Shown piece by piece: positions 9,267-44,235 of a DNA stretch of 64,000 bases; positions within the stretch are counted from its first letter, which is position 1, and every line of letters begins with the position of its first letter. This DNA is from Escherichia coli (lineage in GTDB: Bacteria; Pseudomonadota; Gammaproteobacteria; Enterobacterales; Enterobacteriaceae). The notes beneath the pieces were generated by a model, which worked only from the letters and a program-made list of their open reading frames with translations, searched no databases and was not told the DNA's origin. Both the position numbers and the translations under genes were made by a program. The DNA lies in the NCBI RefSeq assembly GCF_029227855.1, contig NZ_CP074358.1. The stretch is one strand, 5' to 3'.

Positions 9267-9270
9267 TATT

Positions 9271-11621: not shown

Positions 11622-11644
11622 GTTCTCATCTCCCTTTTCTTTTG

Positions 11645-17625: not shown

Positions 17626-17853
17626 TCTTTAAAAATCAGGATTTATTTCAGGCTCCGGCAATACGCATTTATGTGTTCTGTCAGTCATCCGGCTGGCAGG
17701 TAATGAGAACGCAGGAACAGAAGGAGGAAAACACCGGAGAACGTCAGACGCAGATATGAAAAAAGCAGGTCAGGGACCTGCTTAATCCACACCGCAGAGA
17801 CTGCACGAACAGTCTTTACGGTTTCATTAATTAACGTCATAAGAGGCTAAATT

Positions 17854-18084
17854 ATGACAGTAAGTATTGTTTCACCTTCCGCAGCGGCTGTAAAGCCCCG
17901 CCGTCATCCCCGTTGCAGACGCGAAGACATCCCCGCGCCGGAAATTGACCCCGTGCTGAAAGCCTTCGGGCGACACATTGCCCGGAGTTTTCACCGGGGG
18001 CGTGGTGTACACATCCCCGCCATGAAAAACACGGCCTTCGGGCAGGTGCTCCGCACACTCGAACTGAAACGCGCTTTTAACTGA
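17854..18084 (+). CDS. Small basic hypothetical protein (76 aa)
   Basis: First ORF after repeat copy A; RBS agagg about 10 nt upstream. Confidence 0.35.
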   Translation: MTVSIVSPSAAAVKPRRHPRCRREDIPAPEIDPVLKAFGRHIARSFHRGRGVHIPAMKNTAFGQVLRTLELKRAFN

Positions 18085-25056: not shown

Positions 25057-25249
25057 TGCGGCAACAATCACACGGATTTCCCGTGAACGGTCTGAATGAG
25101 CGGATTATTTTCAGGGAAAGTGAGTGTGGTCAGCGTGCAGGTATATGGGCTATGATGTGCCCGGCGCTTGAGGCTTTCTGCCTCATGACGTGAAGGTGGT
25201 TTGTTGCCGTGTTGTGTGGCAGAAAGAAGATAGCCCCGTAGTAAGTTAA

Positions 25250-25320
25250 TTTTCATTAACCACCACGAGGCATCCCTATGTCTAGTCCACATCAGGATAG
25301 CCTCTTACCGCGCTTTGCGC
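25250..25320 (-). ncRNA. sok: Candidate Sok-like antisense RNA of the hok/mok locus (approximate coordinates)
   Basis: Inferred from hok/sok architecture; region antisense to the mok translation-initiation region. Confidence 0.35.
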
Positions 25321-25490
25321 AAGGAGAAGAAGGCCATGAAACTACCACGAAGTTCCCTTGTCTGGTGTGTGTTGATCGTGTGTCTCACACTGTTGATATT
25401 CACTTATCTGACACGAAAATCGCTGTGCGAGATTCGTTACAGAGACGGACACAGGGAGGTGGCGGCTTTCATGGCTTACGAATCCGGTAA
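25278..25490 (+). CDS. mok: Mok-like overlapping reading frame (modulator of hok translation)
   Basis: 70-codon ORF overlapping hok in another frame, as in hok/sok loci. Confidence 0.5.
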
Positions 25491-25744: not shown

Positions 25745-26395
25745 GTGATTATTCTCTTTTTCTTCCTGCTCTGATTCTGACTACTGCAGTGTTGTCCTGT
25801 CTGCCGGGCGCACCTTCGGCTCCCGGCTGCCTGGCGGCATCCGGTCGTCAGGCCCGACTCCGACAGGCAGCTGCTGGCGCACCTGCCAGTCTCCGCCGAA
25901 CCCGCTGGCGCGGTTTCGGGCTGTCGCTACGGTCCGATGCGTGAAAACCCCGGGCTTGCAGCGACCGTTCCGGTCGCGCCGCCTCTGTCGCGCCGTGGCC
26001 TGCGCTCCTGGCATCCCGGCAAAAGGCCGCCGGGATGTAAGGGGCAACGCCGTTTCGCAAACCGCGCTTCACGTCGTTGCGGCGGGTCCCTGCCCGTTGT
26101 TCTGTCCGGTGCCATTCACCTGTTTAAGCCCCTGTCGCCGGGGGCTGATACAGCCACAACCTGCCGCACTGACTGTCCAGGGTAAATGAACAGCCCGCAA
26201 AACTTTTTGCCCAGAAGCAGGCAAAAACTTTTGCGGTCTGCCCCCGGACAGTCGTTTCCGGCCGTGGCAGTGATGCCCCATGCGGCGAAGGTTCTCAAAC
26301 AGGTGATGGTGAATACCGGAGGGAACAAAAGGCAGGTCCCCGCAAAACGTCAAAACCGCGGCTCCCGAAACTCAACAGATGATGGGGGCTGAAAA
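25745..26395. repeat. Frpo/ssi-like structured non-coding repeat, copy C (long form)
   Basis: Near-identical to copy B; hairpin 26195-26236; 3' part resembles copy A (ctgatacagccacaacctgccgcactgactgtccagggtaaatgaacagccc). Confidence 0.6.
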
Positions 26396-26416
26396 CCAGA
26401 GAGAGGAGAAAGCAGG

Positions 26417-26704
26417 ATGAGTACCCGAAATATCCAAGTTAACACCGCGTCGTACACGCTTCTTGTTGCCGGGAAGAAAAAAAACACCGGGGAAGAGTGG
26501 GACGTCCTGGAATTCAGCAGCCTGACTGAGCTGAAAAAATATCGCAAAAGCCACCCGGAAAAGATGGCCTTCAGTTATAGCTACGCGCTCAGTCAGGGTG
26601 TGGATAAGCAGTTCCGCCATATCAACATTGCGGAAGCCGATCACTTCAAACAGTTCCTGCGTCAGATTAAGCGTGCCGGCCTCGATATCCGGGCGATCTG
26701 CTGA
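26417..26704 (+). CDS. Small conserved leading-region protein (95 aa)
   Basis: ATG 26417 with aggagaaagcagg RBS directly after repeat copy C. Confidence 0.55.
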   Translation: MSTRNIQVNTASYTLLVAGKKKNTGEEWDVLEFSSLTELKKYRKSHPEKMAFSYSYALSQGVDKQFRHINIAEADHFKQFLRQIKRAGLDIRAIC

Positions 26705-26823
26705 CCGGATGTGATGAATACCCCTCCTGATTGTTGCAATCTTGTTAATGGAGATCGGGGGGGGATGATATTAAGCGGAAAAATTTTTTATTAAATTTAT
26801 TCTTTCATAAAGGAGTAGCTGTT

Positions 26824-27588
26824 ATGCGATTAGCTTCCCGTTTTGGTCGGTATAATTCCATCCGCCGTGAACGTCCTTTAACGGATGATGAATTAATGCA
26901 GTTCGTGCCTTCGGTATTTTCCGGTGATAAACCTGAGTCCCGGAGTGAACGTTATACGTATATTCCAACAATCAATATCATCAATAAGTTACGTGATGAA
27001 GGTTTCCAGCCATTCTTTGCCTGTCAGAGTCGGGTTCGTGATTTGGGACGTCGCGAATACAGTAAACATATGTTACGTCTTCGCAGGGAAGGGCATATTA
27101 ACGGACAGGAAGTTCCTGAAATTATCCTGCTTAATTCACATGATGGTTCATCCAGTTATCAGATGATCCCCGGAATTTTTCGTTTTGTCTGCACAAATGG
27201 CCTGGTGTGCGGAAATAATTTTGGCGAAATCCGCGTTCCACATAAAGGTGATATTGTCGGGCAGGTTATCGAGGGAGCGTATGAAGTGCTCGGTGTCTTT
27301 GATAAGGTCACTGATAATATGGAGGCGATGAAAGAAATTCATCTTAACAGTGACGAGCAACATTTATTTGGCAGAGCTGCACTGATGGTCAGGTATGAAG
27401 ATGAAAATAAAACGCCAGTGACACCTGAACAGATAATTATTCCCCGTCGTCGGGAAGACAAACAGAACGATCTCTGGACAACCTGGCAGCGGGTTCAGGA
27501 GAATATGATAAAAGGTGGATTATCGGGGCGAAGTGCCTCCGGAAAAATACCAGGACAAGAGCCATTACAGGTATTGATGGTGATATAA
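26824..27588 (+). CDS. Conserved leading-region protein (254 aa), oriT-proximal
   Basis: RBS aaaggag; no catalytic motif recognised. Confidence 0.6.
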   Translation: MRLASRFGRYNSIRRERPLTDDELMQFVPSVFSGDKPESRSERYTYIPTINIINKLRDEGFQPFFACQSRVRDLGRREYSKHMLRLRREGHINGQEVPEIILLNSHDGSSSYQMIPGIFRFVCTNGLVCGNNFGEIRVPHKGDIVGQVIEGAYEVLGVFDKVTDNMEAMKEIHLNSDEQHLFGRAALMVRYEDENKTPVTPEQIIIPRRREDKQNDLWTTWQRVQENMIKGGLSGRSASGKIPGQEPLQVLMVI

Positions 27589-27940
27589 GAATCAACAAGG
27601 CGTTATGGGTGATTGCCGAACAGTTCAGAAAGTGGAAGTCATGATAATATAAGTAAAGCCCCGAAAAAATTTTCGGGGCTTTACTTATATTATCATTTTT
27701 CGGCATTGCTGTGTCGTCTGATATACCTCAATTTCATCAACCGGCTTTCCGGTTGTCTGTAAATATTGTGCCCGCGAAAAATGGTCTGGCAGGAGGCTGC
27801 GCAGTTACCGGGTATATATAAGATGGGTTCCCGCTTCGCGGGGCTTCGGCCAGTCAGTATTGTCACTCATATGATATTTTTGTGTGTGGCCTTCCATGCC
27901 GCTTTTGCGGCATAACCGGTATCTGACAATGTCTGTAAGA

Positions 27941-28450
27941 TTAATTGTTCTGCACGCTGTTAATTTCCGGAAGTGATTTCTTCGTGGCCGGAAGCCGGAT
28001 ACCTTTACTGCTTTTTATCCCGGTATAAATCCGGTAAACATCTGATGCGTAGGCAAGACGTCTCTGGTTCTGGCGTTCGGTTTTCCTGAATCCGGCATTG
28101 TATGCACCAACGGCCTCCCAGGTGACGCCCCATTTTTTAAATGCTATTGCCAGATAATAAGCACCGGTATAAATGTTCATGCAGGGATCTGTTGTCAGAT
28201 GTTCTGGCTTAATTCCGTAGCGGGCCAGTTCGTTAAAATGCTGGGAATCTACCTGCATCAGTCCGCTGCCATATCCCGTTACCGGATTAATACCGATGGC
28301 ATTAACCCGGTAACGGGATTCTTGCCATGATATTGCTCTCAGTAAATCAGGATCTATTTTGTAATCCCGGCCTGCAAGATCAAAGCAATCAGTGGCCTGG
28401 CAGATCTCATTTATAAACATCAGGCAGATGGCTAACATCCATTTTTTCAT
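27941..28450 (-). CDS. Lytic transglycosylase (F plasmid gene X / orf169 / P19 family), 169 aa
   Basis: Signal peptide [19 protein letters not shown]; SLT motifs ISWQESRY and GLMQV; start moved to MKKW (ATG 28450). Confidence 0.85.
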
Positions 28451-28499
28451 TTTTCCACCTCTGGTGACTTTATCCGTAAATAATTTAACCCACTCCACA

Positions 28500-28860
28500 A
28501 AAAGGCTCAACAGGTTGGTGGTTCTCACCACCAAAAGCACCACACCCCACGCAAAAACAAGTTTTTGCTGATTTTTCTTTATAAATAGAGAGTTATGAAA
28601 AATTAGTTTCTCTTACTCTCTTTATGATATTTAAAAAAGCGGTGTCGGCGCGGCTACAACAACGCGCCGACACCGCTTTGTAGGGGTGGTGCTGACTATT
28701 TTTATAAAAAACATTATTTTATATTAGGGGTGCTGCTAGCGGCGCGGTGTGTTTTTTTATAGGATACCGCTAGGGGCGCTGCTAGCGGTGCGTCCCTGTT
28801 TGCATTATGAATTTTAGTGTTTCGAAATTAACTTTATTTTATGTTCAAAAAAGGTAATCT
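28500..28860. other. oriT: Origin of transfer (oriT) with F-type nic region and inverted/direct repeats
   Basis: Bottom strand carries ttgcgtggggtgtggtgcttttggtggtgagaacc (F-like nic sequence, nick near 28540/28541); 14-bp inverted repeat gcggtgtcggcgcg/cgcgccgacaccgc at 28639-28676; direct repeats gctgctagcgg(c/t)gcg. Confidence 0.75.
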
Positions 28861-28863
28861 CTA

Positions 28864-29247
28864 ATGGCTAAGGTGAACCTGTATATCAGCAATGATGCCT
28901 ATGAAAAAATAAATGCGATTATTGAGAAGCGTCGACAGGAAGGGGCAAGGGAAAAAGATGTCAGTTTTTCAGCAACAGCTTCAATGCTTCTTGAACTGGG
29001 GCTTCGTGTACATGAGGCTCAGATGGAGCGTAAAGAGTCTGCATTTAATCAGACTGAGTTTAATAAATTGCTTCTTGAATGCGTTGTAAAAACACAATCA
29101 TCAGTAGCGAAAATTTTGGGTATTGAGTCTCTCAGTCCTCATGTCTCCGGAAATCCAAAGTTTGAATATGCCAATATGGTTGAAGATATCAGGGAGAAGG
29201 TATCATCTGAGATGGAACGATTTTTTCCAAAAAATGATGATGAATAA
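28864..29247 (+). CDS. traM: TraM relaxosome accessory protein
   Basis: 127 aa matching recalled F TraM (MAKVNLYISNDAYEKINAIIEKRRQEGAREKDVSFSATASMLLELGL...). Confidence 0.95.
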   Translation: MAKVNLYISNDAYEKINAIIEKRRQEGAREKDVSFSATASMLLELGLRVHEAQMERKESAFNQTEFNKLLLECVVKTQSSVAKILGIESLSPHVSGNPKFEYANMVEDIREKVSSEMERFFPKNDDE

Positions 29248-29354
29248 AAGAAATTTGACTTCGTTCAAATATCAGAGTTTTTATGATTTAAAAAGGTGAC
29301 AGTACGAAAGATAATTAGTATATTAATTACGTGGTTAATGCCACGTTAAAATTT

Positions 29355-29435
29355 GAATTTGAAAATCGCCGATGCAGGGAGTTCTCTCCTCCCTGCATCG
29401 ACTGTCCATAGAATCCTTTGTGAGGAGGTTCCTAT
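29355..29435 (-). ncRNA. finP: FinP antisense RNA (approximate), complementary to the traJ leader
   Basis: 12-bp perfect hairpin cgatgcagggag-ttctctc-ctccctgcatcg at 29370-29400 in the traJ 5' UTR; architecture of FinOP systems. Confidence 0.5.
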
Positions 29436-30123
29436 GTATCCGATGGATCGTATTCAACAAAAACATGCTCGTCAAATAGATCTGCTGGAAAATCTGACGG
29501 CAGTTATTCAGGATTATCCAAATCCAGCCTGTATCAGGGACGAAACTGGAAAATTTATTTTTTGCAATACGCTGTTTCATGAGTCATTTCTTACACAAGA
29601 TCAAAGTGCTGAAAAATGGCTTCTGTCGCAGAGAGATTTTTGTGAATTGATCTCTGTCACAGAGATGGAAGCATACAGGAATGAGCATACGCATCTTAAT
29701 CTTGTAGAGGATGTTTTTATTCAGAACAGATTCTGGACAATATCTGTCCAGTCATTTCTTAATGGACACAGAAATATCATTCTGTGGCAATTTTATGATG
29801 CTGCTCATGTTCGTCATAAAGACAGTTATAATCAAAAAACGATTGTCAGTGATGATATCAGAAATATAATCAGAAGAATGAGTGATGATTCTTCTGTATC
29901 ATCATATGTAAATGATGTCTTTTACTTATATAGCACCGGAATCAGTCATAATGCTATAGCAAGAATATTAAACATATCCATCTCCACATCAAAGAAACAC
30001 GCGTCTCTGATATGCGACTACTTCTCTGTTTCTAATAAAGATGAGTTAATCATCTTACTCTACAATAAAAAGTTTATTCATTATTTGTACGAGAAGGCTA
30101 TGTGTATCATAAATACGCGTTAA
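29434..30123 (+). CDS. traJ: TraJ transfer activator (229 aa)
   Basis: ATG 29434 with gaggagg RBS; AT-rich gene; position between traM and traY. Confidence 0.85.
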   Translation: MYPMDRIQQKHARQIDLLENLTAVIQDYPNPACIRDETGKFIFCNTLFHESFLTQDQSAEKWLLSQRDFCELISVTEMEAYRNEHTHLNLVEDVFIQNRFWTISVQSFLNGHRNIILWQFYDAAHVRHKDSYNQKTIVSDDIRNIIRRMSDDSSVSSYVNDVFYLYSTGISHNAIARILNISISTSKKHASLICDYFSVSNKDELIILLYNKKFIHYLYEKAMCIINTR

Positions 30124-30221
30124 TAAAGTGTTAATAAAATATAGGCTTTCCGTCTATTTACCTTTTCTGATTATTCTGCAAACATAAGTAGTAACCAGAA
30201 GATAAACAGCGGGAGGTGTTA

Positions 30222-30617
30222 TTGAAAAGATTTGGTACACGTTCTGCAACAGGTAAGATGGTAAAACTAAAATTACCTGTAGATGTGGAAAGTCTATTAA
30301 TTGAGGCAAGTAACAGAAGCGGAAGAAGTCGATCGTTTGAGGCAGTAATAAGACTTAAAGATCATCTTCACCGCTATCCAAAGTTTAACAGGGCAGGGAA
30401 TATCTATGGTAAGTCGCTGGTTAAGTATCTGACAATGCGTCTGGATGATGAAACTAACCAGCTACTTATTGCAGCCAAAAATCGTAGTGGATGGTGTAAA
30501 ACAGATGAGGCTGCAGACAGAGTTATTGATCATTTGATCAAGTTTCCTGATTTTTATAACTCGGAGATATTCAGGGAGGCAGATAAAGAGGAAGATATAA
30601 CATTTAATACACTCTAG
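30222..30617 (+). CDS. traY: TraY oriT-binding RHH protein (131 aa, TTG start)
   Basis: MKRFGTRSATGKMVKLKLPVDVESLLIEASNRSGRSRSFEAVIRL (tandem RHH); gggagg RBS 5 nt upstream of TTG. Confidence 0.85.
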   Translation: MKRFGTRSATGKMVKLKLPVDVESLLIEASNRSGRSRSFEAVIRLKDHLHRYPKFNRAGNIYGKSLVKYLTMRLDDETNQLLIAAKNRSGWCKTDEAADRVIDHLIKFPDFYNSEIFREADKEEDITFNTL

Positions 30618-30649
30618 TTTTATTCATTTATCCGAAATTGAGGTAACTT

Positions 30650-31009
30650 ATGAATGCTGTTTTAAGTGTTCAGGGTGCTTCTGCGCCCGTCAAAAAGAAG
30701 TCGTTTTTTTCTAAATTCACTCGTCTGAATATGCTTCGCCTGGCTCGCGCTGTGATCCCGGCTGCTGTTCTGATGATGTTCTTCCCGCAACTGGCAATGG
30801 CAGCACAGGGCCAGGACCTGATGGCAAGCGGTAACACCACGGTTAAGGCGACCTTCGGTAAGGACTCCAGTGTTGTTAAATGGGTCGTTCTGGCTGAAGT
30901 TCTGGTCGGTGCGGTCATGTACATGATGACCAAAAACGTCAAGTTCCTGGCCGGTTTTGCCATCATCTCTGTATTTATTGCTGTGGGTATGGCCGTCGTT
31001 GGCCTCTGA
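30650..31009 (+). CDS. traA: Propilin TraA (F-pilin precursor)
   Basis: Long leader then mature pilin ...[65 protein letters not shown]. Confidence 0.95.
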
Positions 31010-31023
31010 CAGGAAATAAAACG

Positions 31024-31335
31024 ATGTCGGGAGACGAGAATAAACTTAAGAAATATCGTTTCCCGGAAACACTGACCAACCAGAGCCGCTGGTTTGGCCT
31101 GCCACTGGATGAACTGATCCCCGCAGCAATCTGTATTGGCTGGGGTATCACAACATCGAAATATCTGTTCGGTATTGGTGCAGCGGTTCTGGTTTATTTC
31201 GGGATTAAAAAACTGAAAAAAGGGCGGGGCAGTTCCTGGTTACGTGACCTGATTTACTGGTATATGCCAACAGCCCTGCTGCGCGGTATTTTTCATAATG
31301 TTCCCGATTCGTGTTTCCGGCAGTGGATTAAATAG
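31024..31335 (+). CDS. traL: TraL pilus assembly protein
   Basis: Small membrane protein following traA in F order. Confidence 0.85.
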
Positions 31336-31356
31336 AACTGATACCAGGATTGTTAT

Positions 31357-31923
31357 ATGGAACACGGTGCCCGTTTAAGTACCAGTCGTGTAATGGCCAT
31401 CGCCTTTATATTTATGTCAGTGCTTATTGTTCTCAGCCTCTCTGTTAACGTCATTCAGGGGGTGAATAACTACCGTCTTCAGAATGAGCAACGCACTGCG
31501 GTGACGCCAATGGCATTTAATGCCCCCTTTGCCGTGTCACAGAATAGTGCCGATACCTCTTATTTACAGCAGATGGCGCTGTCATTTATTGCCCTCCGTC
31601 TGAATGTTTCATCAGAAACTGTCGATGCCTCACATCAGGCGCTTCTGCAATATATTCGTCCGGGGGCACAGAACCAGATGAAAGTTATTCTGGCCGAAGA
31701 AGCCCAGCGTATTAAAAACGATAACGTGAATTCTGCTTTTTTCCAGACCAGTGTCCGTGTCTGGCCTCAGTATGGCCGTGTGGAAATTCGTGGAGTGCTT
31801 AAAACCTGGATTGGTGATTCAAAACCTTTCACTGATATCAAACATTACATCCTTATTCTGAAGCGGGAAAACGGGGTGACCTGGCTGGATAATTTCGGGG
31901 AAACAGACGATGAGAAAAAATAA
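31357..31923 (+). CDS. traE: TraE pilus assembly protein
   Basis: 188 aa with N-terminal TM; F gene order. Confidence 0.9.
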
Positions 31924-32638
31924 TACAGCAATAATATTCGGCGGCCTGTTTTTTTCCTGCAACGTGATGGCCGGAGCCGGTACGCTGGCCCCCACAGTGG
32001 TGCCAATGGTGAACGGTGGTCAGGCCAGTATTGCCATCAGTAATACCAGCCCGAATCTGTTTACCGTTCCCGGTGACCGGATTATCGCCGTGAACAGTCT
32101 GGATGGTGCCCTGACCAATAATGAGCAGACTGCTTCCGGCGGTGTGGTGGTGGCCACCGTCAACAAAAAGCCCTTTACGTTCATTCTGGAAACTGAGCGG
32201 GGTCTGAACCTTTCCATTCAGGCCGTTCCCCGTGAAGGCGCGGGGCGTACCATTCAGCTGGTCAGTGACCTGCGCGGAACCGGAGAAGAAGCCGGCGCGT
32301 GGGAAACGTCCACGCCTTACGAATCCCTGCTTGTGACCATCAGCCAGGCTGTCCGTGGCGGAAAATTACCTGCAGGCTGGTATCAGGTTCCTGTGACAAA
32401 GGAAACCCTGAAGGCCCCTGCGGGTCTGTCTTCAGTGGCAGATGCAGTATGGATGGGGAATCACCTGAAGATGGTCCGCTTTACCGTGGAAAATAAAACG
32501 CTGTCTGCCCTGAATATCCGGGAAAGTGATTTCTGGCAGCCGGGAACCCGTGCCGTGATGTTCAGCCAGCCTGCCAGCCAGTTACTGGCAGGTGCGCGCA
32601 TGGATGTGTATGTCATCCGTGACGGGGAGGGCAACTGA
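31910..32638 (+). CDS. traK: TraK secretin-like T4SS protein
   Basis: 242 aa, signal peptide; F gene order. Confidence 0.9.
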
Positions 32639-34065
32639 TGGCCAGTATCAATACCATTGTGAAACGCAAGCAGTACCTGTGGCTGGGGATTGTGGTTGTC
32701 GGTGCAGCCTCCGCGATTGGTGGTGCGCTGTATCTGTCTGATGTGGACATGTCCGGTAACGGTGAAACCGTGGCTGAACAGGAGCCTGTGCCGGATATGA
32801 CCGGTGTGGTGGATACGACCTTTGATGACAAGGTGCGTCAGCATGCCACCACCGAGATGCAGGTGACGGCAGCGCAGATGCAGAAGCAGTATGAGGAAAT
32901 CCGTCGTGAGCTGGATGTTCTGAACAAACAGCGCGGTGATGACCAGCGTCGTATTGAAAAGCTGGGACAGGACAATGCCGCCCTGGCAGAGCAGGTAAAA
33001 GCCCTGGGTGCTAATCCCGTCACGGCGACCGGTGAGCCTGTACCGCAGATGCCTGCCTCACCGCCCGGCCCGGAAGGCGAACCACAGCCAGGAAACACCC
33101 CCGTATCCTTCCCGCCGCAGGGCAGCGTTGCTGTTCCACCGCCGACGGCGTTTTATCCCGGGAATGGTGTCACGCCACCACCACAGGTGACGTACCAGTC
33201 TGTGCCGGTGCCTAACCGGATACAGCGTAAGGTGTTTACCCGTAATGAGGGAAAACAGGGACCATCACTGCCGTACATTCCGTCAGGAAGTTTTGCGAAA
33301 GCCATGCTGATTGAAGGGGCGGATGCCAATGCCTCTGTCACCGGTAATGAATCCACGGTGCCGATGCAGCTGCGTATCACCGGCCTGGTGGAAATGCCGA
33401 ACAGCAAGACGTATGACGCAACGGGATGTTTTGTGGGTCTGGAAGCCTGGGGGGATGTGTCCAGTGAGCGTGCCATTGTACGCACCCGCAATATCAGTTG
33501 CCTGAAGGACGGCAAAACTATTGATATGCCGATTAAGGGGCATGTCAGCTTCCGGGGTAAAAACGGTATCAAGGGCGAAGTGGTGATGCGTAACGGCAAA
33601 ATCCTCGGCTGGGCATGGGGCGCGGGATTTGTTGACGGTATCGGTCAGGGAATGGAGCGCGCCTCCCAGCCGGCTGTCGGGCTGGGTGCCACAGCCGCTT
33701 ACGGGGCTGGTGATGTCCTGAAAATGGGTATCGGTGGCGGCGCATCGAAAGCCGCACAGACGCTCAGTGACTACTACATCAAACGTGCCGAACAGTATCA
33801 CCCGGTGATACCGATTGGTGCGGGCAACGAAGTGACCGTGGTGTTCCAGGACGGCTTCCAGCTGAAAACCGTGGAAGAGATGGCGCTGGAACGCACGCAG
33901 AGCAGAGCGGAAGAAGACAATCCGGAAAGTCCGGTTCCTGTTCCGCCATCGGCTGAAAGTCATCTTAACGGCTTTAATACTGACCAGATGCTGAAGCAGC
34001 TGGGCAACCTGAATCCGCAGCAGTTTATGTCCGGCAGCCAGGGAGGGGGCAACGATGGCAAATAA
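32638..34065 (+). CDS. traB: TraB (VirB10-like) T4SS protein
   Basis: 475 aa, N-terminal TM, coiled coil and Pro-rich linker, C-terminal VirB10-like domain. Confidence 0.9.
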   Translation: MASINTIVKRKQYLWLGIVVVGAASAIGGALYLSDVDMSGNGETVAEQEPVPDMTGVVDTTFDDKVRQHATTEMQVTAAQMQKQYEEIRRELDVLNKQRGDDQRRIEKLGQDNAALAEQVKALGANPVTATGEPVPQMPASPPGPEGEPQPGNTPVSFPPQGSVAVPPPTAFYPGNGVTPPPQVTYQSVPVPNRIQRKVFTRNEGKQGPSLPYIPSGSFAKAMLIEGADANASVTGNESTVPMQLRITGLVEMPNSKTYDATGCFVGLEAWGDVSSERAIVRTRNISCLKDGKTIDMPIKGHVSFRGKNGIKGEVVMRNGKILGWAWGAGFVDGIGQGMERASQPAVGLGATAAYGAGDVLKMGIGGGASKAAQTLSDYYIKRAEQYHPVIPIGAGNEVTVVFQDGFQLKTVEEMALERTQSRAEEDNPESPVPVPPSAESHLNGFNTDQMLKQLGNLNPQQFMSGSQGGGNDGK

Positions 34066-34645
34066 TATGTCGTCCCGTCAGGCGTGCCATGCCGCCCGGT
34101 ATGTTGTCGCCCGGGTTCTGCGAGGACTGTTCTGGTGTCTGAAGTACACCGTCATTCTGCCACTGGCCACAATGGCCCTGATGGCTCTGTTTGTTTTATG
34201 GAAGGACAACACCACGCCGGGGAAATTACTGGTTAAGGAGATTAACTTCGTAAGACAAACAGCACCTGCCGGACAGTTCCCGGTCAGTGAATGCTGGTTT
34301 TCTTCCTCTGATTCTTCAGGCAGATCAGAAATACAGGATATCTGCCATTACCGCGCGGCTGATGCTGCAGATTATGTCAGGGAGACTGACCGGTCACTGA
34401 TGCAACTGGTCACCGCATTATGGGCAACACTGGCACTGATGTATGTCTCGCTGGCAGCGATCACCGGGAAATATCCGGTGCGACCCGGAAAAATGAAATG
34501 TATCCGGGTGGTAACCGCAGATGAACATCTGAAGGAAGTTTATACGGAAGACGCTTCCCTGCCGGGAAAAATCAGGAAATGCCCTGCTTATCTTCCTGAT
34601 GACAGAACAAACAGAAACAACGGAGATAAAAATGAACATGCGTAA
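34055..34645 (+). CDS. traP: TraP
   Basis: 196 aa membrane protein in F position. Confidence 0.8.
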   Translation: MANNMSSRQACHAARYVVARVLRGLFWCLKYTVILPLATMALMALFVLWKDNTTPGKLLVKEINFVRQTAPAGQFPVSECWFSSSDSSGRSEIQDICHYRAADAADYVRETDRSLMQLVTALWATLALMYVSLAAITGKYPVRPGKMKCIRVVTADEHLKEVYTEDASLPGKIRKCPAYLPDDRTNRNNGDKNEHA

Positions 34646-34829
34646 TATTAATGTTATTACAGCCCTCTCTGTGCCAGGTAAAACCGTGTCAGATGATTTT
34701 ATGCATGCTGTTCTCTGTAACTGCGCCACAAGAATCGTACTTCCTGCACCGGAGAAATTCGGTTCTGAGTCATTGCCGGACAATTTTAATATGACTGCTG
34801 TCGGTGTGATGAAGAATTCAGAAATATAA
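34632..34829 (+). CDS. trbD: TrbD (65 aa)
   Basis: Start moved to MNMRNINV (ATG 34632); F order. Confidence 0.65.
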   Translation: MNMRNINVITALSVPGKTVSDDFMHAVLCNCATRIVLPAPEKFGSESLPDNFNMTAVGVMKNSEI

Positions 34830-34840
34830 GGAACCCTTCG

Positions 34841-35092
34841 ATGAATAAGCTGGTTTCTGATGGCAGCGTCAAAAAAATAAATTATCCGGTGCTGTATGAG
34901 TCCGGAATAACACCTCCGTTATGTGAAGTCAGTGCACCAGAACCTGATGCGGGGGGAAAACGCATTGTGGCATATGTTTATAAATCATCACGGAGTACGG
35001 TTTTTGAAAATCCTGACATTGTAAAAACCTGTACGGTCAGGGATTTGAAGAAGGATTTTGTGAACTGCGATGAGAAAGGTGAGGGACAATGA
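34841..35092 (+). CDS. trbG: TrbG (83 aa)
   Basis: Size and position as in F. Confidence 0.7.
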   Translation: MNKLVSDGSVKKINYPVLYESGITPPLCEVSAPEPDAGGKRIVAYVYKSSRSTVFENPDIVKTCTVRDLKKDFVNCDEKGEGQ

Positions 35093-35604
35093 AACAGATT
35101 TCTTTATTTATTCCTCTGCTGGGGACCTTATTACTTTCCGGCTGTGCCGGAACCAGTACGGAATTTGAGTGTAACGCCACCACATCCGATACCTGTATGA
35201 CGATGGAGCAGGCCAATGAGAAGGCCAAAAAACTGGAGCAGTCCTCAGAAGCAAAGCCGGTTGCGGCATCACTGCCGCGCCTGGCTGAAGGGAACTTCCG
35301 GACAATGCCGGTGCAGACCGTCACCGCGACCACTCCGTCCGGCAGCAGACCTGCGGTGACAGCACATCTGGAGCAGAAACTGCTGGTACCACGCCCGCTG
35401 TTTACCGCTGCCCGGGAAGTGAAAACGGTTGTTCCGGTCAGTTCAGTTACGCCGGTAACACCTCCTCGTCCGCTAAGAACGGGTGAGCAGACGGCAGCAT
35501 TATGGATAGCGCCTTATATTGATAACCAGGATGTTTATCATCAGCCATCCAGCGTGTTTTTTGTTATTAAACCGTCTGCGTGGGGAAAACCACGTATTAA
35601 TTAA
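35089..35604 (+). CDS. traV: TraV outer-membrane lipoprotein
   Basis: Lipobox LLLSGCAG; 171 aa. Confidence 0.9.
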   Translation: MKQISLFIPLLGTLLLSGCAGTSTEFECNATTSDTCMTMEQANEKAKKLEQSSEAKPVAASLPRLAEGNFRTMPVQTVTATTPSGSRPAVTAHLEQKLLVPRPLFTAAREVKTVVPVSSVTPVTPPRPLRTGEQTAALWIAPYIDNQDVYHQPSSVFFVIKPSAWGKPRIN

Positions 35605-35738
35605 CTGGCCCTGAAGTTGTATATCAGCCGGCAATGCCGGCGGGCTTTCTGTATTCAAAATCTGCCTGTAAAACGAGTGCCCTGTGCGTGAAAAGGGATG
35701 GGCGGTAGCGTGTCAGAACATGTCGGGAGGAATATTCC

Positions 35739-35960
35739 GTGAGTGATGAAGCCGATGAAGCATATTCAGTGACAGAACAACTGACCATGACAGGAATAAA
35801 CCGGATACGCCAGAAAATAAATGCTCATGGTATTCCTGTTTATCTCTGTGAAGCATGCGGAAATCCTATTCCGGAAGCCCGGCGGAAAATATTTCCCGGT
35901 GTGACGTTGTGCGTTGAATGTCAGGCGTATCAGGAAAGACAGAGAAAACATTATGCATAA
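35739..35960 (+). CDS. traR: TraR (DksA/TraR zinc-finger family)
   Basis: C4 zinc finger CEACGNPIPE...CVECQ; 73 aa. Confidence 0.9.
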   Translation: MSDEADEAYSVTEQLTMTGINRIRQKINAHGIPVYLCEACGNPIPEARRKIFPGVTLCVECQAYQERQRKHYA

Positions 35961-36119
35961 GTCAGTCGCAGAACATAGTGATTTAATTCCGGATGAACAT
36001 GAGTGGATATTCAGAAAACAGAAATCTTTGTATATGCGCCGGGAAATGGCGCGTTAATTACAGGTATTCCCTTCATGGCTACCGCATTTCTCGCTTTATT
36101 TTTCAACTAAGGAATTCAT

Positions 36120-38747
36120 GTGAATAACCCACTTGAGGCCGTCACTCAGGCGGTTAACTCCCTCGTCACAGCACTGAAACTGCCTGACGAATCCGCAAAG
36201 GCCAATGAAGTTCTGGGCGAAATGAGCTTCCCGCAGTTCAGCCGTCTGCTGCCGTACCGTGATTACAACCAGGAATCCGGTCTGTTCATGAATGACACCA
36301 CGATGGGCTTTATGCTGGAAGCCATCCCCATCAATGGGGCGAATGAGTCCATTGTGGAGGCCCTCGATCACATGCTGCGCACCAAACTGCCGCGCGGTAT
36401 TCCGTTGTGTATCCATCTGATGTCCAGTCAGCTGGTTGGTGACAGGATTGAATACGGGCTGCGTGAGTTCTCCTGGTCAGGTGAACAGGCTGAACGGTTT
36501 AACGCCATTACCCGGGCCTATTATATGAAAGCGGCAGCGACACAGTTTCCGCTGCCGGAGGGGATGAATCTGCCCCTGACCCTGCGCCATTACCGGGTGT
36601 TTATCTCGTACTGTTCTCCTTCGAAGAAAAAAAGCCGGGCCGACATTCTGGAAATGGAAAACCTGGTGAAAATCATCCGGGCGTCGTTACAGGGGGCCAG
36701 TATCACCACACAGACGGTGGATGCACAGGCCTTTATCGATATTGTCGGGGAGATGATTAACCATAACCCGGACTCCCTGTACCCGAAAAGACGTCAGCTG
36801 GACCCGTATTCTGATCTGAATTATCAGTGTGTGGAGGACAGTTTTGATCTGAAAGTCCGGGCTGATTACCTGACGCTGGGCCTGCGTGAGAACGGCAGGA
36901 ACAGCACGGCCCGCATCCTGAATTTCCATCTGGCCCGTAACCCGGAAATCGCCTTCCTGTGGAACGTGGCCGACAACTACAGCAACCTGCTGAACCCGGA
37001 ACTGTCCATCTCCTGTCCGTTCATCCTGACGCTGACTCTGGTGGTGGAAGACCAGGTGAAAACCCACAGCGAAGCCAACCTGAAGTACATGGACCTGGAG
37101 AAAAAGTCGAAGACCTCCTATGCCAAATGGTTTCCGTCCGTGGAGAAAGAGGCGAAGGAGTGGGGGGAACTGCGTCAGCGGCTGGGCTCCGGTCAGTCCT
37201 CCGTGGTGTCCTACTTCCTCAACATCACAGCATTCTGCAAGGACAATAATGAAACGGCGCTGGAAGTGGAGCAGGACATCCTGAACAGCTTTCGTAAAAA
37301 CGGTTTTGAGCTGATTTCACCGCGCTTTAACCACATGCGCAATTTCCTGACCTGCCTGCCCTTTATGGCCGGGAAAGGGCTGTTTAAACAGCTGAAAGAG
37401 GCCGGAGTGGTTCAGCGCGCAGAGAGCTTTAATGTTGCCAACCTGATGCCGTTAGTGGCGGATAACCCCCTGACACCGGCAGGTCTGCTGGCACCCACCT
37501 ACCGTAACCAGCTGGCGTTTATCGATATTTTCTTCCGGGGGATGAATAACACCAACTACAACATGGCGGTCTGTGGCACCTCCGGGGCCGGTAAAACCGG
37601 GCTGATACAGCCACTTATCCGCAGCGTGCTGGACTCCGGAGGCTTTGCCGTGGTGTTCGACATGGGGGATGGATACAAGTCCCTGTGTGAGAACATGGGC
37701 GGGGTGTATCTGGACGGTGAAACCCTGCGTTTTAACCCGTTTGCGAACATCACCGATATTGACCAGTCAGCGGAGCGTGTCCGTGACCAGTTGTCAGTGA
37801 TGGCCAGCCCCAACGGTAACCTGGATGAAGTGCATGAAGGTCTGCTGTTGCAGGCGGTCAGAGCCTCCTGGCTGGCCAAAGAGAACAGAGCACGTATTGA
37901 TGACGTGGTGGATTTCCTGAAAAACGCCAGTGACAGCGAGCAGTATGCCGAGTCACCGACTATCCGCAGCCGTCTGGACGAAATGATTGTGCTGCTTGAC
38001 CAGTACACTGCCAACGGCACTTACGGCCAGTATTTTAACTCTGATGAGCCGTCCCTGCGGGATGACGCAAAAATGGTGGTGCTGGAGCTGGGCGGACTGG
38101 AAGACCGTCCGTCACTGCTGGTTGCGGTGATGTTCTCCCTGATTATCTACATCGAGAACAGGATGTACCGCACGCCGCGTAACCTCAAGAAACTGAACGT
38201 TATTGATGAAGGCTGGCGTCTGCTGGACTTCAAAAATCACAAGGTCGGTGAATTTATTGAGAAAGGCTACCGTACGGCCCGCCGTCATACCGGTGCCTAT
38301 ATCACCATCACACAGAACATCGTCGACTTTGACTCTGATAAGGCCTCCAGTGCTGCCCGCGCGGCATGGGGTAACTCCTCCTACAAAATTATCCTCAAAC
38401 AGAGTGCGAAGGAGTTCGCGAAATACAACCAACTGTATCCGGACCAGTTCCTGCCACTGCAGCGCGACATGATTGGTAAGTTTGGTGCGGCCAAAGACCA
38501 GTGGTTCAGTTCCTTCCTGCTGCAGGTGGAAAACCATTCCTCCTGGCACCGTCTGTTTGTGGACCCGTTAAGCCGCGCCATGTACAGCTCTGACGGCCCG
38601 GATTTTGAGTTTGTGCAGCAGAAGCGTAAAGAGGGGCTGAGTATTCATGAGGCGGTGTGGCAGCTGGCGTGGAAGAAGTCAGGGCCGGAGATGGCTTCGC
38701 TGGAAGCCTGGCTGGAAGAACATGAGAAATACAGGAGTGTTGCATGA
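36120..38747 (+). CDS. traC: TraC (VirB4-like) T4SS ATPase
   Basis: 875 aa; Walker A CGTSGAGKTG; GTG start. Confidence 0.95.
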   Translation: MNNPLEAVTQAVNSLVTALKLPDESAKANEVLGEMSFPQFSRLLPYRDYNQESGLFMNDTTMGFMLEAIPINGANESIVEALDHMLRTKLPRGIPLCIHLMSSQLVGDRIEYGLREFSWSGEQAERFNAITRAYYMKAAATQFPLPEGMNLPLTLRHYRVFISYCSPSKKKSRADILEMENLVKIIRASLQGASITTQTVDAQAFIDIVGEMINHNPDSLYPKRRQLDPYSDLNYQCVEDSFDLKVRADYLTLGLRENGRNSTARILNFHLARNPEIAFLWNVADNYSNLLNPELSISCPFILTLTLVVEDQVKTHSEANLKYMDLEKKSKTSYAKWFPSVEKEAKEWGELRQRLGSGQSSVVSYFLNITAFCKDNNETALEVEQDILNSFRKNGFELISPRFNHMRNFLTCLPFMAGKGLFKQLKEAGVVQRAESFNVANLMPLVADNPLTPAGLLAPTYRNQLAFIDIFFRGMNNTNYNMAVCGTSGAGKTGLIQPLIRSVLDSGGFAVVFDMGDGYKSLCENMGGVYLDGETLRFNPFANITDIDQSAERVRDQLSVMASPNGNLDEVHEGLLLQAVRASWLAKENRARIDDVVDFLKNASDSEQYAESPTIRSRLDEMIVLLDQYTANGTYGQYFNSDEPSLRDDAKMVVLELGGLEDRPSLLVAVMFSLIIYIENRMYRTPRNLKKLNVIDEGWRLLDFKNHKVGEFIEKGYRTARRHTGAYITITQNIVDFDSDKASSAARAAWGNSSYKIILKQSAKEFAKYNQLYPDQFLPLQRDMIGKFGAAKDQWFSSFLLQVENHSSWHRLFVDPLSRAMYSSDGPDFEFVQQKRKEGLSIHEAVWQLAWKKSGPEMASLEAWLEEHEKYRSVA

Positions 38748-39130
38748 GTTCAACGCAGAAACCCGCCGACGTCACGGCAGAACGACGCAGCCACTGGTGG
38801 TGGAAGGTGCCGGGATGCCTGGCAATGGTGTTACTGAACGCAGCCGTCAGTTACGGCATTGTCAGACTGAACGCACCGGTGACTGTCGCCTTCAACATGA
38901 AACAGACCGTGGATGCGTTTTTTGACAGCGCCAGTCAGAAACAACTGTCAGAAGCGCAGTCAAAAGCCCTTTCAGCGCGTTTTAACACGGCACTGGAAGC
39001 CAGCCTGCAGGCGTGGCAGCAGAAACACCACGCGGTCATTCTGGTGTCGCCTGCTGTGGTACAGGGGGCACCGGATATCACCCGGGAAATCCAGCAGGAT
39101 ATTGCCCGGCGAATGAGGGCGGAACCATGA
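38744..39130 (+). CDS. trbI: TrbI
   Basis: 128 aa, N-terminal TM; F order. Confidence 0.85.
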   Translation: MSSTQKPADVTAERRSHWWWKVPGCLAMVLLNAAVSYGIVRLNAPVTVAFNMKQTVDAFFDSASQKQLSEAQSKALSARFNTALEASLQAWQQKHHAVILVSPAVVQGAPDITREIQQDIARRMRAEP

Positions 39131-39759
39131 GATGCCGGGGGCTGATTGCCCTGCTGATATGGGGGCAGAGTGTGGCCGCCGCCGATCTTGGTACCTGGGG
39201 CGATCTGTGGCCGGTAAAGGAGCCGGACATGCTGACGGTGATCATGCAGCGCCTGACGGCACTGGAGCAGTCCGGTGAGATGGGCCGGAAAATGGATGCC
39301 TTTAAGGAGCGGGTGATCCGCAACAGTCTGCGGCCCCCTGCCGTGCCCGGTATCGGACGCACGGAGAAATACGGTAGCCGGTTGTTTGACCCGTCCGTCA
39401 GACTGACTGCGGATATCCGGGATAACGAAGGGCGGGGGGTTGCCCGTCAGGGTGAAGTGATGAATCCGCTGCAGTATGTTCCTTTTAACCAGACGCTGTA
39501 TTTCATCAATGGCGATGATCCGGCGCAGGTGGCCTGGATGAAACGCCAGACGCCGCCCACACTGGAGAGCAAAATTATCCTCGTGCAGGGCAGTATCCCG
39601 GAGATGCAGAAGTCTCTGGACAGCCGTGTTTACTTTGACCAGAACGGTGTGCTCTGCCAGCGCCTCGGCATTGATCAGGTCCCGGCACGGGTGAGCGCCG
39701 TTCCCGGCGATCGCTTCCTGAAGGTGGAATTTATTCCGGCAGAGGAGGGCAGAAAATGA
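39127..39759 (+). CDS. traW: TraW pilus assembly protein (210 aa)
   Basis: Start moved to MRCRGLIALLIWGQSVAA (signal peptide), ATG 39127 overlapping trbI stop. Confidence 0.85.
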   Translation: MRCRGLIALLIWGQSVAAADLGTWGDLWPVKEPDMLTVIMQRLTALEQSGEMGRKMDAFKERVIRNSLRPPAVPGIGRTEKYGSRLFDPSVRLTADIRDNEGRGVARQGEVMNPLQYVPFNQTLYFINGDDPAQVAWMKRQTPPTLESKIILVQGSIPEMQKSLDSRVYFDQNGVLCQRLGIDQVPARVSAVPGDRFLKVEFIPAEEGRK

Positions 39760-40748
39760 AGCGAAGCCTGTGGCTGCTGATGTTATTCCTTCTCGCCGGT
39801 CATGTCCCTGCAGCGTCTGCGGATTCTGCCTGTGAGGGGCGTTTTGTAAACCCGATCACGGATATCTGCTGGAGCTGTATTTTCCCGCTCTCGCTGGGCA
39901 GTATCAAAGTCAGTCAGGGTAAGGTCCCCGACACGGCGAACCCGTCGATGCCCATTCAGATTTGTCCGGCACCGCCGCCGCTGTTCAGGCGTATCGGGCT
40001 GGCCATTGGTTACTGGGAGCCGATGGCGCTGACGGACGTCACCCGATCACCGGGATGCATGGTTAACCTGGGCTTCAGCCTGCCGGCTTTTGGTAAAACG
40101 GCACAGGGAACGGCGAAAAAGGATGAGAAGCAGGTGAACGGGGCGTTCTATCACGTTCACTGGTACAAATACCCGCTGACGTACTGGCTTAACATCATCA
40201 CATCGCTGGGCTGTCTGGAAGGTGGTGACCTGGATATCGCTTATCTTTCTGAAATCGACCCCACCTGGACGGACAGCAGCCTGACCACCATTCTCAATCC
40301 GGAAGCTGTCATCTTTGCCAATCCGATAGCACAGGGGGCCTGTGCAGCAGATGCCATTGCCAGCGCCTTTAATATGCCTCTCGATGTTCTGTTCTGGTGT
40401 GCCGGTTCGCAGGGCAGTATGTACCCGTTCAATGGCTGGGTGAGTAATGAGTCCAGTCCGTTGCAGTCTTCCCTGCTGGTCAGTGAACGCATGGCGTTCA
40501 AGCTGCACCGTCAGGGCATGATTATGGAAACCATCGGGAAAAATAACGCCGTCTGTAATGAATATCCGTCCCCAATCCTGCCCAAAGAACGCTGGCGTTA
40601 CCAGATGGTGAATATGTACCCGGACAGCGGACAGTGCCACCCGTTCGGGCGCAGTGTGACCCGCTGGGAAACCGGGAAAAATCCGCCCAATACAAAGAAA
40701 AACTTCGGCTACCTGATGTGGCGTAAACGTAACTGTGTCTTCCTGTGA
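39756..40748 (+). CDS. traU: TraU
   Basis: 330 aa with signal peptide; F order. Confidence 0.9.
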   Translation: MKRSLWLLMLFLLAGHVPAASADSACEGRFVNPITDICWSCIFPLSLGSIKVSQGKVPDTANPSMPIQICPAPPPLFRRIGLAIGYWEPMALTDVTRSPGCMVNLGFSLPAFGKTAQGTAKKDEKQVNGAFYHVHWYKYPLTYWLNIITSLGCLEGGDLDIAYLSEIDPTWTDSSLTTILNPEAVIFANPIAQGACAADAIASAFNMPLDVLFWCAGSQGSMYPFNGWVSNESSPLQSSLLVSERMAFKLHRQGMIMETIGKNNAVCNEYPSPILPKERWRYQMVNMYPDSGQCHPFGRSVTRWETGKNPPNTKKNFGYLMWRKRNCVFL

Positions 40749-40753
40749 GGTGA

Positions 40754-41395
40754 ATGATGAAGCTGAGTATGAAATCTCTGGCAGCACTGCTGATGATGCT
40801 GAACGGGGCGGTTATGGCGTCAGAAAACGTGAACACTCCTGAAAACCGCCAGTTCCTGAAGCAGCAGGAAAATTTAAGCAGACAACTGCGTGAAAAACCT
40901 GACCATCAGCTGAAAGCCTGGGCGGAGAAGCAGGTGCTGGAAAACCCCCTTCAGCGTTCAGATAACCATTTCCTGGATGAGCTGGTTCGTAAACAGCAGG
41001 CTTCGCAGGACGGGAAACCCCGGCAGGGTGCTCTGTATTTTGTGTCGTTTTCCATTCCCGAAGAGGGGCTGAAACGAATGCTGGGCGAAACCCGGCACTA
41101 CGGTATACCCGCCACACTGCGGGGCATGGTGAACAATGACCTGAAGACCACCGCTGAAGCCGTGCTGTCCCTGGTGAAAGACGGCGCGACTGATGGTGTT
41201 CAGATCGACCCGACGCTGTTTTCACAGTACGGCATTCGCAGTGTACCGGCACTGGTGGTGTTCTGCAGTCAGGGATACGACATCATCCGGGGAAACCTGC
41301 GGGTCGGCCAGGCGCTGGAGAAAGTGGCCGCCACGGGTGACTGCCGGCAGGTGGCTCATGATTTACTGGCAGGGAAAGGAGATTCCGGGAAATGA
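40754..41395 (+). CDS. trbC: TrbC
   Basis: Signal peptide, about 212 aa; F order. Confidence 0.85.
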   Translation: MMKLSMKSLAALLMMLNGAVMASENVNTPENRQFLKQQENLSRQLREKPDHQLKAWAEKQVLENPLQRSDNHFLDELVRKQQASQDGKPRQGALYFVSFSIPEEGLKRMLGETRHYGIPATLRGMVNNDLKTTAEAVLSLVKDGATDGVQIDPTLFSQYGIRSVPALVVFCSQGYDIIRGNLRVGQALEKVAATGDCRQVAHDLLAGKGDSGK

Positions 41396-43200
41396 AACGT
41401 ATTTTACCTCTGATACTGGCTCTGGTTGCCGGCATGGCACAGGCTGACAGCAACAGTGATTACCGGGCCGGCTCTGATTTTGCTCACCAGATCAAAGGAC
41501 AGGGAAGCAGCAGTATTCAGGGCTTTAAGCCACAGGAGAGTATCCCCGGCTATAACGCGAATCCGGACGAGACAAAATATTACGGTGGCGTGACTGCCGG
41601 CGGGGATGGCGGCCTGAAAAATGACGGCACCACGGAATGGGCGACCGGTGAAACCGGAAAAACCATCACAGAGTCATTCATGAACAAGCCGAAAGACATT
41701 CTTTCACCGGATGCACCGTTTATCCAGACCGGCAGGGATGTGGTGAACCGGGCTGACAGCATTGTGGGAAACACCGGGCAGCAGTGCAGTGCGCAGGAGA
41801 TTAGCCGGAGTGAATACACGAATTACACCTGTGAGCGGGATTTACAGGTGGAGCAGTACTGCACACGAACTGCCCGTATGGAGCTGCAGGGGAGTACCAC
41901 ATGGGAAACCCGGACGCTGGAGTATGAAATGAGTCAGCTACCTGCACGTGAAGTGAATGGTCAGTATGTTGTCTCCATTACCTCTCCCGTTACCGGTGAA
42001 ATTGTCGATGCGCATTACAGCTGGAGTCGTACTTACCTACAAAAGAGTGTACCTATGACAATTACAGTACTGGGAACACCACTGAGCTGGAATGCCAAAT
42101 ACTCAGCAGATGCCTCATTTACACCAGTACAGAAAACACTGACTGCCGGTGTGGCTTTTACGTCATCTCACCCCGTCCGGGTCGGGAATACAAAATTCAG
42201 ACGTCATACGGCAATGAAGCTGCGTCTGGTTGTCAGGGTAAAAAAAGCCTCGTACACCCCGTATGTTGTCTGGTCTGAAAGCTGCCCGTTCAGCAAGGAG
42301 CTGGGGAAACTGACAAAAACAGAATGTACGGAGGCTGGCGGGAACAGGACGCTGGTGAAAGACGGTCAGTCATACAGTATGTACCAGAGCTGCTGGGCAT
42401 ACCGGGACACGTATGTCACACAGTCAGCAGACAAGGGAACCTGTCAGACCTACACCGACAATCCAGCCTGTACCCTGGTGTCACACCAGTGCGCCTTTTA
42501 CTCCGAAGAAGGTGCCTGTCTGCATGAATATGCCACGTACTCCTGTGAGTCAAAAACATCCGGGAAAGTGATGGTCTGCGGGGGAGACGTCTTCTGTCTC
42601 GATGGCGAATGCGATAAGGCTCAGAGCGGGAAGAGTAATGATTTTGCCGAAGCAGTTTCTCAGCTGGCAGCACTGGCCGCTGCAGGTAAGGATGTTGCGG
42701 CGCTGAACGGGGTGGATGTCCGTGCTTTCACCGGTCAGGCGAAATTTTGTAAGAAGGCTGCAGCCGGATACAGCAACTGCTGTAAGGACAGCGGCTGGGG
42801 ACAGGATATCGGGCTGGCCAAATGCAGCAGTGATGAAAAAGCCCTGGCTAAAGCAAAATCAAACAAACTGACCGTCAGTGTCGGAGAGTTCTGTTCGAAG
42901 AAAGTGCTGGGTGTCTGTCTGGAGAAAAAACGCAGCTACTGTCAGTTTGATTCGAAGCTGGCGCAGATAGTCCAGCAGCAGGGGCGCAACGGTCAGCTGA
43001 GTATCAGTTTTGGCAGTGCGAAGCATCCTGACTGTCGGGGGATTACGGTTGATGAGCTGCAGAAAATTCAGTTCGACAGACTGGATTTCACTAACTTCTA
43101 CGAAGACCTGATGAATAACCAGAAAATCCCGGACAGTGGTGTTCTGACGCAGAAAGTGAAAGAGCAGATTGCTGACCAGCTGAAACAGGCAGGACAGTAA
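41392..43200 (+). CDS. traN: TraN mating-pair stabilisation outer-membrane protein
   Basis: 602 aa, signal peptide, Cys-rich C-terminal half. Confidence 0.95.
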   Translation: MKRILPLILALVAGMAQADSNSDYRAGSDFAHQIKGQGSSSIQGFKPQESIPGYNANPDETKYYGGVTAGGDGGLKNDGTTEWATGETGKTITESFMNKPKDILSPDAPFIQTGRDVVNRADSIVGNTGQQCSAQEISRSEYTNYTCERDLQVEQYCTRTARMELQGSTTWETRTLEYEMSQLPAREVNGQYVVSITSPVTGEIVDAHYSWSRTYLQKSVPMTITVLGTPLSWNAKYSADASFTPVQKTLTAGVAFTSSHPVRVGNTKFRRHTAMKLRLVVRVKKASYTPYVVWSESCPFSKELGKLTKTECTEAGGNRTLVKDGQSYSMYQSCWAYRDTYVTQSADKGTCQTYTDNPACTLVSHQCAFYSEEGACLHEYATYSCESKTSGKVMVCGGDVFCLDGECDKAQSGKSNDFAEAVSQLAALAAAGKDVAALNGVDVRAFTGQAKFCKKAAAGYSNCCKDSGWGQDIGLAKCSSDEKALAKAKSNKLTVSVGEFCSKKVLGVCLEKKRSYCQFDSKLAQIVQQQGRNGQLSISFGSAKHPDCRGITVDELQKIQFDRLDFTNFYEDLMNNQKIPDSGVLTQKVKEQIADQLKQAGQ

Positions 43201-43223
43201 GGTAGGGAAAATAACCGGGGAAA

Positions 43224-43484
43224 ATGATGAAAGTCATATTCACGTCGAACCGTTTTATTGATTTTCTTATCCGGCTTTTGATTACAGCGATTGTCATTTC
43301 CCCAGTAATTATCTGGTCGTGGGATACGGTAAAAGAAACCACTGCAGGTGAGATACTTGCTGCTGCTTTCGTTATTTTTTACTCCGGTGTGCTCCTGTTT
43401 ATTCTGTATTTTTGTTTTTCTGCCCTGACTGACCTGCAGAAACCTGATGAAAGAAAAAGTGATGAAAGGAATGAAGATGAATAA
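43224..43484 (+). CDS. trbE: TrbE
   Basis: 86 aa membrane protein; F order. Confidence 0.75.
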   Translation: MMKVIFTSNRFIDFLIRLLITAIVISPVIIWSWDTVKETTAGEILAAAFVIFYSGVLLFILYFCFSALTDLQKPDERKSDERNEDE

Positions 43485-44220: not shown

Positions 44221-44235
44221 TCGCGGATTTGATTT

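Follow-up and report, generated by a model that had tools for sequence, protein, structure and literature searches.

The perfect hairpin that precedes traJ in the DNA analyzed here is the terminator stem-loop (stem-loop II, SLII) of FinP, the known antisense RNA of F-like conjugative plasmids. The window, by which we mean the whole 64-kb stretch of DNA that was examined, very probably represents the transfer half of a conjugative plasmid that is F-like (MOBF12 group A) and carries a complete FinOP system. FinOP in this setting is the ordinary fertility-inhibition switch of most natural F-like plasmids, which laboratory F has lost. The coexistence of FinP with an intact finO gene is textbook knowledge, an intact finO is the norm for these plasmids, and the only part of our analysis that might be new is a pattern of flipped SLII loops among related plasmids. 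The features of the region from traM to traY are as follows.

28864 to 29247, plus strand: traM, 99.2% identical to F TraM
29296 to 29324, plus strand: PJ, a traJ promoter-like site (GTGACA-17-TATATT) found by consensus scan
29329 to 29439, plus strand: traJ 5′ UTR, the FinP target, matched by Rfam RF00243
29362 to 29440, minus strand: finP, a 79-nt antisense RNA with its 5′ end at 29440 and a 3′ GAUUUU tail that ends at 29362
29368 to 29402, minus strand: FinP SLII (14 bp, one of them G·U), which serves as terminator and as the principal hairpin bound by FinO
29370 to 29381 and 29389 to 29400: hairpin arms, CGATGCAGGGAG and CTCCCTGCATCG, 12 nt each and 100% complementary
29382 to 29388: allele-specific apical loop of SLII, TTCTCTC in traJ mRNA and GAGAGAA in FinP
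29403 to 29406, minus strand: GACA spacer between SLI and SLII, assigned from sequence and fold
29407 to 29436, minus strand: FinP stem-loop I (SLI), complementary to the traJ RBS and start codon
29434 to 30123, plus strand: traJ, whose 229-aa product activates the tra operon promoter and is 99.6% identical to that of F
29447 to 29475, minus strand: candidate finP promoter (TTGACG-17-TACGAT) found by consensus scan within the first traJ codons
30216 to 30617, plus strand: traY, with which the tra operon activated by TraJ begins; the protein is 100% identical to that of F

The earlier note on this DNA had claimed a FinP-type hairpin at 29370 to 29400, with perfect 12-bp arms and a TTCTCTC loop, just 5′ of the traJ RBS. 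Indeed, the two fully complementary 12-nt arms enclose this 7-nt loop, the hairpin ends 21 nt before the GAGGAGG sequence of the RBS, and the 12 perfect base pairs sit inside the 14-bp SLII of FinP. The claimed hairpin is only half of the RNA, because the SLI structure that spans the RBS (29422 to 29428) and the ATG start codon (29434 to 29436) is present as well. The Rfam model for FinP (RF00107) matches the minus strand from 29362 to 29440 over its full length (model positions 1 to 76) with a score of 98.6 bits against a gathering threshold of 45. On the opposite strand at the same place, the traJ 5′ UTR model (RF00243, traJ_5) scores 124.3 bits against a threshold of 50; its match begins at 29329, 3′ of PJ, and FinP is complementary to the traJ leader along its full length.

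Folding of an 83-nt minus-strand RNA from this site yields a predicted free energy of −38.5 kcal/mol (z = −6.97 relative to dinucleotide shuffles), and the MFE and centroid folds of FinP agree. The order of elements in this fold is a 4-nt 5′ tail, SLI, the GACA spacer, SLII, and the GAUUUU sequence. The spacer corresponds to the RNase E cleavage site of F FinP (PMC8136791). The putative finP promoter, which is sigma-70-like by consensus match only, is located 7 nt ahead of the 5′ end of FinP. PJ, the finP promoter, both stems, the spacer, the tail, and the SLI loop are base-for-base the same as in F. A GATC sequence (Dam site) at 29446 to 29449 shares bases with the −10 hexamer from which finP would be transcribed. 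Such an overlap reportedly accompanies Dam-dependent finP transcription in pSLT (Camacho et al. 2005, cited in PMC7690428).

Inverted repeats of this quality are rare in the window. A scan of all 64 kb for perfect hairpins with arms of at least 12 bp and loops of 3 to 10 nt recovered only four distinct examples, and 30 first-order Markov simulations of the sequence produced none. That the hairpin is a chance palindrome devoid of function is therefore hardly conceivable, given its absence from all simulations, the Rfam scores far above the gathering thresholds, and the fact that in more than 4000 plasmids the stems are invariant and variation is confined to the loop. The three other perfect hairpins of the window are a 26-bp palindrome (27641 to 27696) between a DUF932 gene and a lytic transglycosylase gene, whose shape resembles that of a bidirectional terminator; a perfect 17-bp inverted repeat (28636 to 28679) directly 5′ of traM in the oriT region; and a perfect, AT-rich 14-bp hairpin (17439 to 17474) in the leading region.

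The same repeat is bound to fold in the traJ leader also, and the Rfam traJ_5 model includes the hairpin. It could thus be argued that the structure acts mainly on the plus strand, either by shaping or stabilizing traJ mRNA or by terminating read-through from traM. To compare the two strands, we aligned ten alleles, comprising those of the window, F, R100, a pSLT-like plasmid, and six others. When read in the FinP sense, each of the 240 pair cells is standard and the 14 base pairs of SLII hold throughout, whereas in the traJ mRNA sense 91.3% of pair cells are standard. Every pair that deviates is a G·U in FinP and an A·C in traJ mRNA. Compensatory double changes are absent from the ten alleles, and hence the pattern is one of conservation and strand asymmetry rather than covariation. 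Because pairing stays intact in the minus-strand sense only, the antisense RNA appears to be the molecule whose fold is under selection.

The sequence surrounding the hairpin likewise disfavors a plus-strand terminator. The nucleotides 3′ of the hairpin on the plus strand read ACTGTCC and lack a T-run, whereas the minus strand carries GCGATTTT and has a correctly placed promoter. Moreover, established FinOP biology already makes the plus-strand hairpin the target of FinP, and not an alternative to it. A predominantly plus-strand role is therefore very improbable, and we continue with the assignment of the hairpin to FinP.

The arrangement of genes near the finO locus is given below together with the IS3 element of the window.

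4743 to 6000, plus strand: IS3, 1258 bp, 100% identical to NC_002483 positions 1 to 1258 and far from finO
59015 to 59761, plus strand: traX, with an in-frame TGA at 59189 to 59191 (codon 59), directly 5′ of finO
59816 to 60376, plus strand: finO, 186 aa, uninterrupted (ATG, 186 codons, stop)

The prediction that finO is a complete 186-codon gene holds, as its frame runs without a stop or frameshift and encodes both the FinO_N domain (PF12602, 135.8 bits) and the ProQ/FinO domain (PF04352, 94.6 bits). The protein is identical to the crystallized FinO (PDB 1DVO) at 149 of 152 positions, and the alignment to R100 FinO that the earlier note had suggested gives 179 of 186 identities. A comparable value (182 of 186) is obtained with an F FinO that we reconstructed by excising IS3 along with one of the two AGC copies that its insertion had duplicated. 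In F, where finO is disrupted by IS3 as had also been stated, the element (NC_002483, positions 1 to 1258) sits after codon 132, whereas the window reads without interruption at the equivalent site (60208 to 60211). The sequence from 60208 to 60641 continues into F positions 1258 to 1691, which follow the finO-splitting IS3. The gene occupies the distal end of the tra region, beginning at 59816 after the end of traX at 59761.

The IS3 of the window was correctly described as residing elsewhere, and its 1258 bp are the same as those of the copy that splits finO in F. It is bordered by AGC on the left and GTT on the right, and thus lacks a 3-bp target duplication. Its flanks (3889 to 4743 and 6001 to 11728) have no counterpart in F, which suggests IS3-mediated rearrangement or recombination between IS3 copies. 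A related plasmid (CP057480.1, 36821 to 40382) that was considered as a possible case of insertion into finO was rejected, since its IS3-family element falls between traI and traX, upstream of an intact finO.

Immediately upstream of finO, codon 59 of traX is TGG (Trp) in F, in R100, and in the closest relative pECC-1470_100, and is TGA in the window. Judged from its sequence, traX is probably a pseudogene, or is split in two; an ATG comes immediately after the TGA (TGAATG). The traX gene is dispensable for transfer. The nonsense codon could, through polarity, lower transcription of finO, whose start lies 625 nt further on. In addition, a simple consensus scan of the plus strand from 58900 to 59816 revealed no sigma-70 consensus promoter for finO. 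In R100, traX and finO are separated by orf286, an 861-bp alpha/beta hydrolase gene that the window lacks; a 54-nt junction takes its place. The junction is identical to that of F, which also lacks orf286. In a study from 1992, van Biesen and Frost are said to have associated finO that lacks an upstream orf286 with weaker repression.

How such components repress transfer is known in considerable detail. By base-pairing with the traJ leader, FinP makes the RBS inaccessible; FinO attaches to SLII and to the 3′ tail, shields the GACA spacer from RNase E, and speeds formation of the FinP–traJ duplex, which is then degraded by RNase III (PMC8136791, PMC7690428, PMC5102898). F is derepressed only because its finO is broken by IS3, and F FinP works once FinO is supplied (PMC8136791, PMC7690428, PMC5102898). 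In the plasmid represented by the window, FinP would be transcribed from the sigma-70-type promoter within the traJ codons and terminated by SLII and the GAUUUU sequence, after which FinO would accelerate the loop–loop “kissing” interaction and duplex formation with traJ mRNA. TraJ would then not be made, and RNase III would break down the duplex. In the absence of TraJ, transcription from the tra operon promoter would be off in most cells and transfer would be repressed, with transient derepression expected in new transconjugants.

As all cis elements, finP, and finO are intact, a repressed (Fin+) state is expected, and we consider it likely that steady-state transfer is truly repressed. In practical terms, this predicts a low level of transfer at steady state and bursts of transfer in new hosts. 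The degree of repression is uncertain, and the main doubt concerns FinO dosage, given that traX contains a stop codon, that orf286 is missing, and that finO has no consensus promoter. These same features raise the alternative that FinOP is present but leaky, such that FinO is under-produced and the plasmid is weakly repressed or effectively derepressed despite its intact finO. The TGA in traX, which is not found in F, R100, or pECC-1470_100, would be consistent with this alternative, as would the missing sigma-70 site and the missing orf286. The title of one paper cited in PMC7690428 further links the level of fertility inhibition to the concentration of finO mRNA. However, translation may restart at TGAATG and thereby limit polarity, the traX–finO junction is the same as that of F, and the closest relatives, which have an annotated FinO, share the traX–finO arrangement. 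Moreover, a finO promoter may exist despite the outcome of a simple consensus scan. On balance a leaky system is unlikely, and true repression is the reading we retain.

The window is collinear with F but distinct from it, as judged from 22 differences between traM and traY, an intact finO, a different traS, and the absence of vapBC. The two plasmids (F, NC_002483) are 98.4% identical where window positions 25945 to 44629 align with F positions 63562 to 82250, and 96% identical where positions 53725 to 60211 align with F positions 92673 to 99159. The 22 differences fall within 2100 nt (28600 to 30699), and six of them are concentrated in the seven nucleotides of the SLII loop (29382 to 29388). 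There, the window has TTCTCTC and F has ACGTGAA (6 of 7 nt differ), and the SLI loop is the same in both. The RNA is therefore not the F-specific finP allele. Exact matches to the complete window FinP (79 of 79 nt) were found in 539 PLSDB records, compared to 318 for F FinP, and the window thus carries a common natural allele on an F-type traJ background. Among the natural IncF plasmids whose finP is the same are NZ_CP023354.1, NZ_CP103534.1, and CP058028.1, and the traM–traY region of such plasmids is up to 99.9% identical to that of the window.

It is an established rule, reportedly set out by Finlay et al. in 1986 (cited in PMC9977716), that the loops of FinP determine its specificity. Under this rule, the F and window RNAs, which differ in loop II, should not cross-repress efficiently through that loop. 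The finP alleles of F and ColB2 are reported to differ mainly in a loop. Since the F allele and the window allele are joined to the same TraJ, they offer a clean natural pair for evaluating the share of loop II in FinP specificity.

R100/R6-5 (NC_002134), the classical repressed system, resembles the window in possessing an intact 186-aa FinO at the distal end of the tra region and a FinP with the same two-hairpin architecture and the same stems. It differs in having another traJ allele (223 aa, with a different N terminus), a 6-nt SLII loop (AGCGAC), and one base change in the SLI loop. Other antisense RNAs that employ kissing loops, as FinP does, are CopA/CopT of R1, Inc RNA/FopA of ColIb-P9, and RepX/FinO of pRSF1010. 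In these systems, a structured RNA encoded in cis pairs through its apical loop and blocks translation initiation, in some instances with the aid of a FinO-domain chaperone (PMC9977716, PMC8136791). They control replication, whereas FinP controls transfer.

To examine loop variation more broadly, we combined plasmid representatives with 120 loci recovered by a pattern scan of metagenome contigs. Among the 13 distinct SLII loops present in these relatives, four pairs are exact reverse complements of each other, and the two members of each pair occur with one TraJ type and the same SLI.

ACGTGAA and TTCACGT: the pair on F-type traJ, 318 versus 8 PLSDB records
GTCTGAA and TTCAGAC: 941 versus 288 PLSDB plasmids, with flanks identical at 799 of 800 positions
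CAGCCA and TGGCTG: a further pair
CTTGTCC and GGACAAG: a further pair
Loop-pair loci in the related plasmids and metagenome contigs: L009/L014, L021/L038, L016/L059, and L001/L135

Random loops of the same composition would be expected to yield 0.0035 such pairs. With four pairs found, inversion of the loop between its arms is the simplest reading. It is tentatively proposed, at somewhat less than even odds, that the SLII loop is a recurrent inversion hot spot between perfect arms, with flips that arise when the arms recombine or through template switching. An inversion of this type would leave repression in cis intact, as FinP and its target are read from one DNA. The flipped FinP loop would be identical, and not complementary, to the parental target loop, and thus a single step would create a new specificity allele. 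If true, this would constitute a simple mutational route for diversifying the specificity groups of antisense RNAs.

An origin of the flipped loops as assembly artefacts was considered and rejected, because assembler k-mers exceed the 12-bp arms in length and hundreds of closed plasmids carry each orientation. The two orientations of the GTCTGAA/TTCAGAC pair are each linked to two or more different haplotypes of the upstream sequence, a distribution that could fit recurrent flips rather than a single ancient inversion and that recombination explains equally well. In the literature searched, which excluded the primary papers of 1986 to 1994, we found no paper that describes loop inversion. The loop of the window itself is three substitutions from the flipped F loop and six from the F loop. 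It is not a flipped F loop, as only 4 of 7 positions match the reverse complement of the F sequence. Its own flipped form, GAGAGAA, has no exact match in PLSDB, where the flipped F loop has eight. The F loop ACGTGAA also appears in two metagenome contigs that carry a non-F TraJ (beginning MCALDRRERPL) and a different SLI loop; hence loop II and traJ alleles reassort or converge.

The remainder of the transfer region conforms to that of an F-like plasmid. A tblastn search of the window with 37 F proteins showed that the essential transfer proteins, including TraD, TraI, and those that build the pilus and the mating pair, are full length and 91 to 100% identical to those of F. Within the same search, artA, the F allele of traS, and vapBC gave no match; trbF matched over no more than 39 residues at the C terminus, with 64% identity, and trbJ, at 85%, is divergent. 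Together with the premature stop in traX, these are the points at which the gene content departs from that of F. The artA, vapBC, and trbJ/trbF differences correspond to sites at 44629, 45734 to 45810, and 53725. In place of traS there is an unrelated 171-aa ORF (50005 to 50520), which probably confers a different entry-exclusion specificity. No sequence in PLSDB or among complete E. coli genomes matches the whole window; the best database match is 97.9% identical over traX–finO and 95 to 99% identical over the first 25 kb.

Seven additional Rfam matches exceed their gathering thresholds. Four of these correspond to antisense RNAs that were first described on pHK01 (AS-pc02, AS-traI, AS-traG, and AS-pc01).

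60620 to 60802: AS-pc02
56574 to 56650: AS-traI
47899 to 47984: AS-traG
17760 to 17859: AS-pc01
25162 to 25338: sok
61800 to 61956: sok
62762 to 62852: CopA-like replication-control RNA of the plasmid’s own replicon, assigned by Rfam
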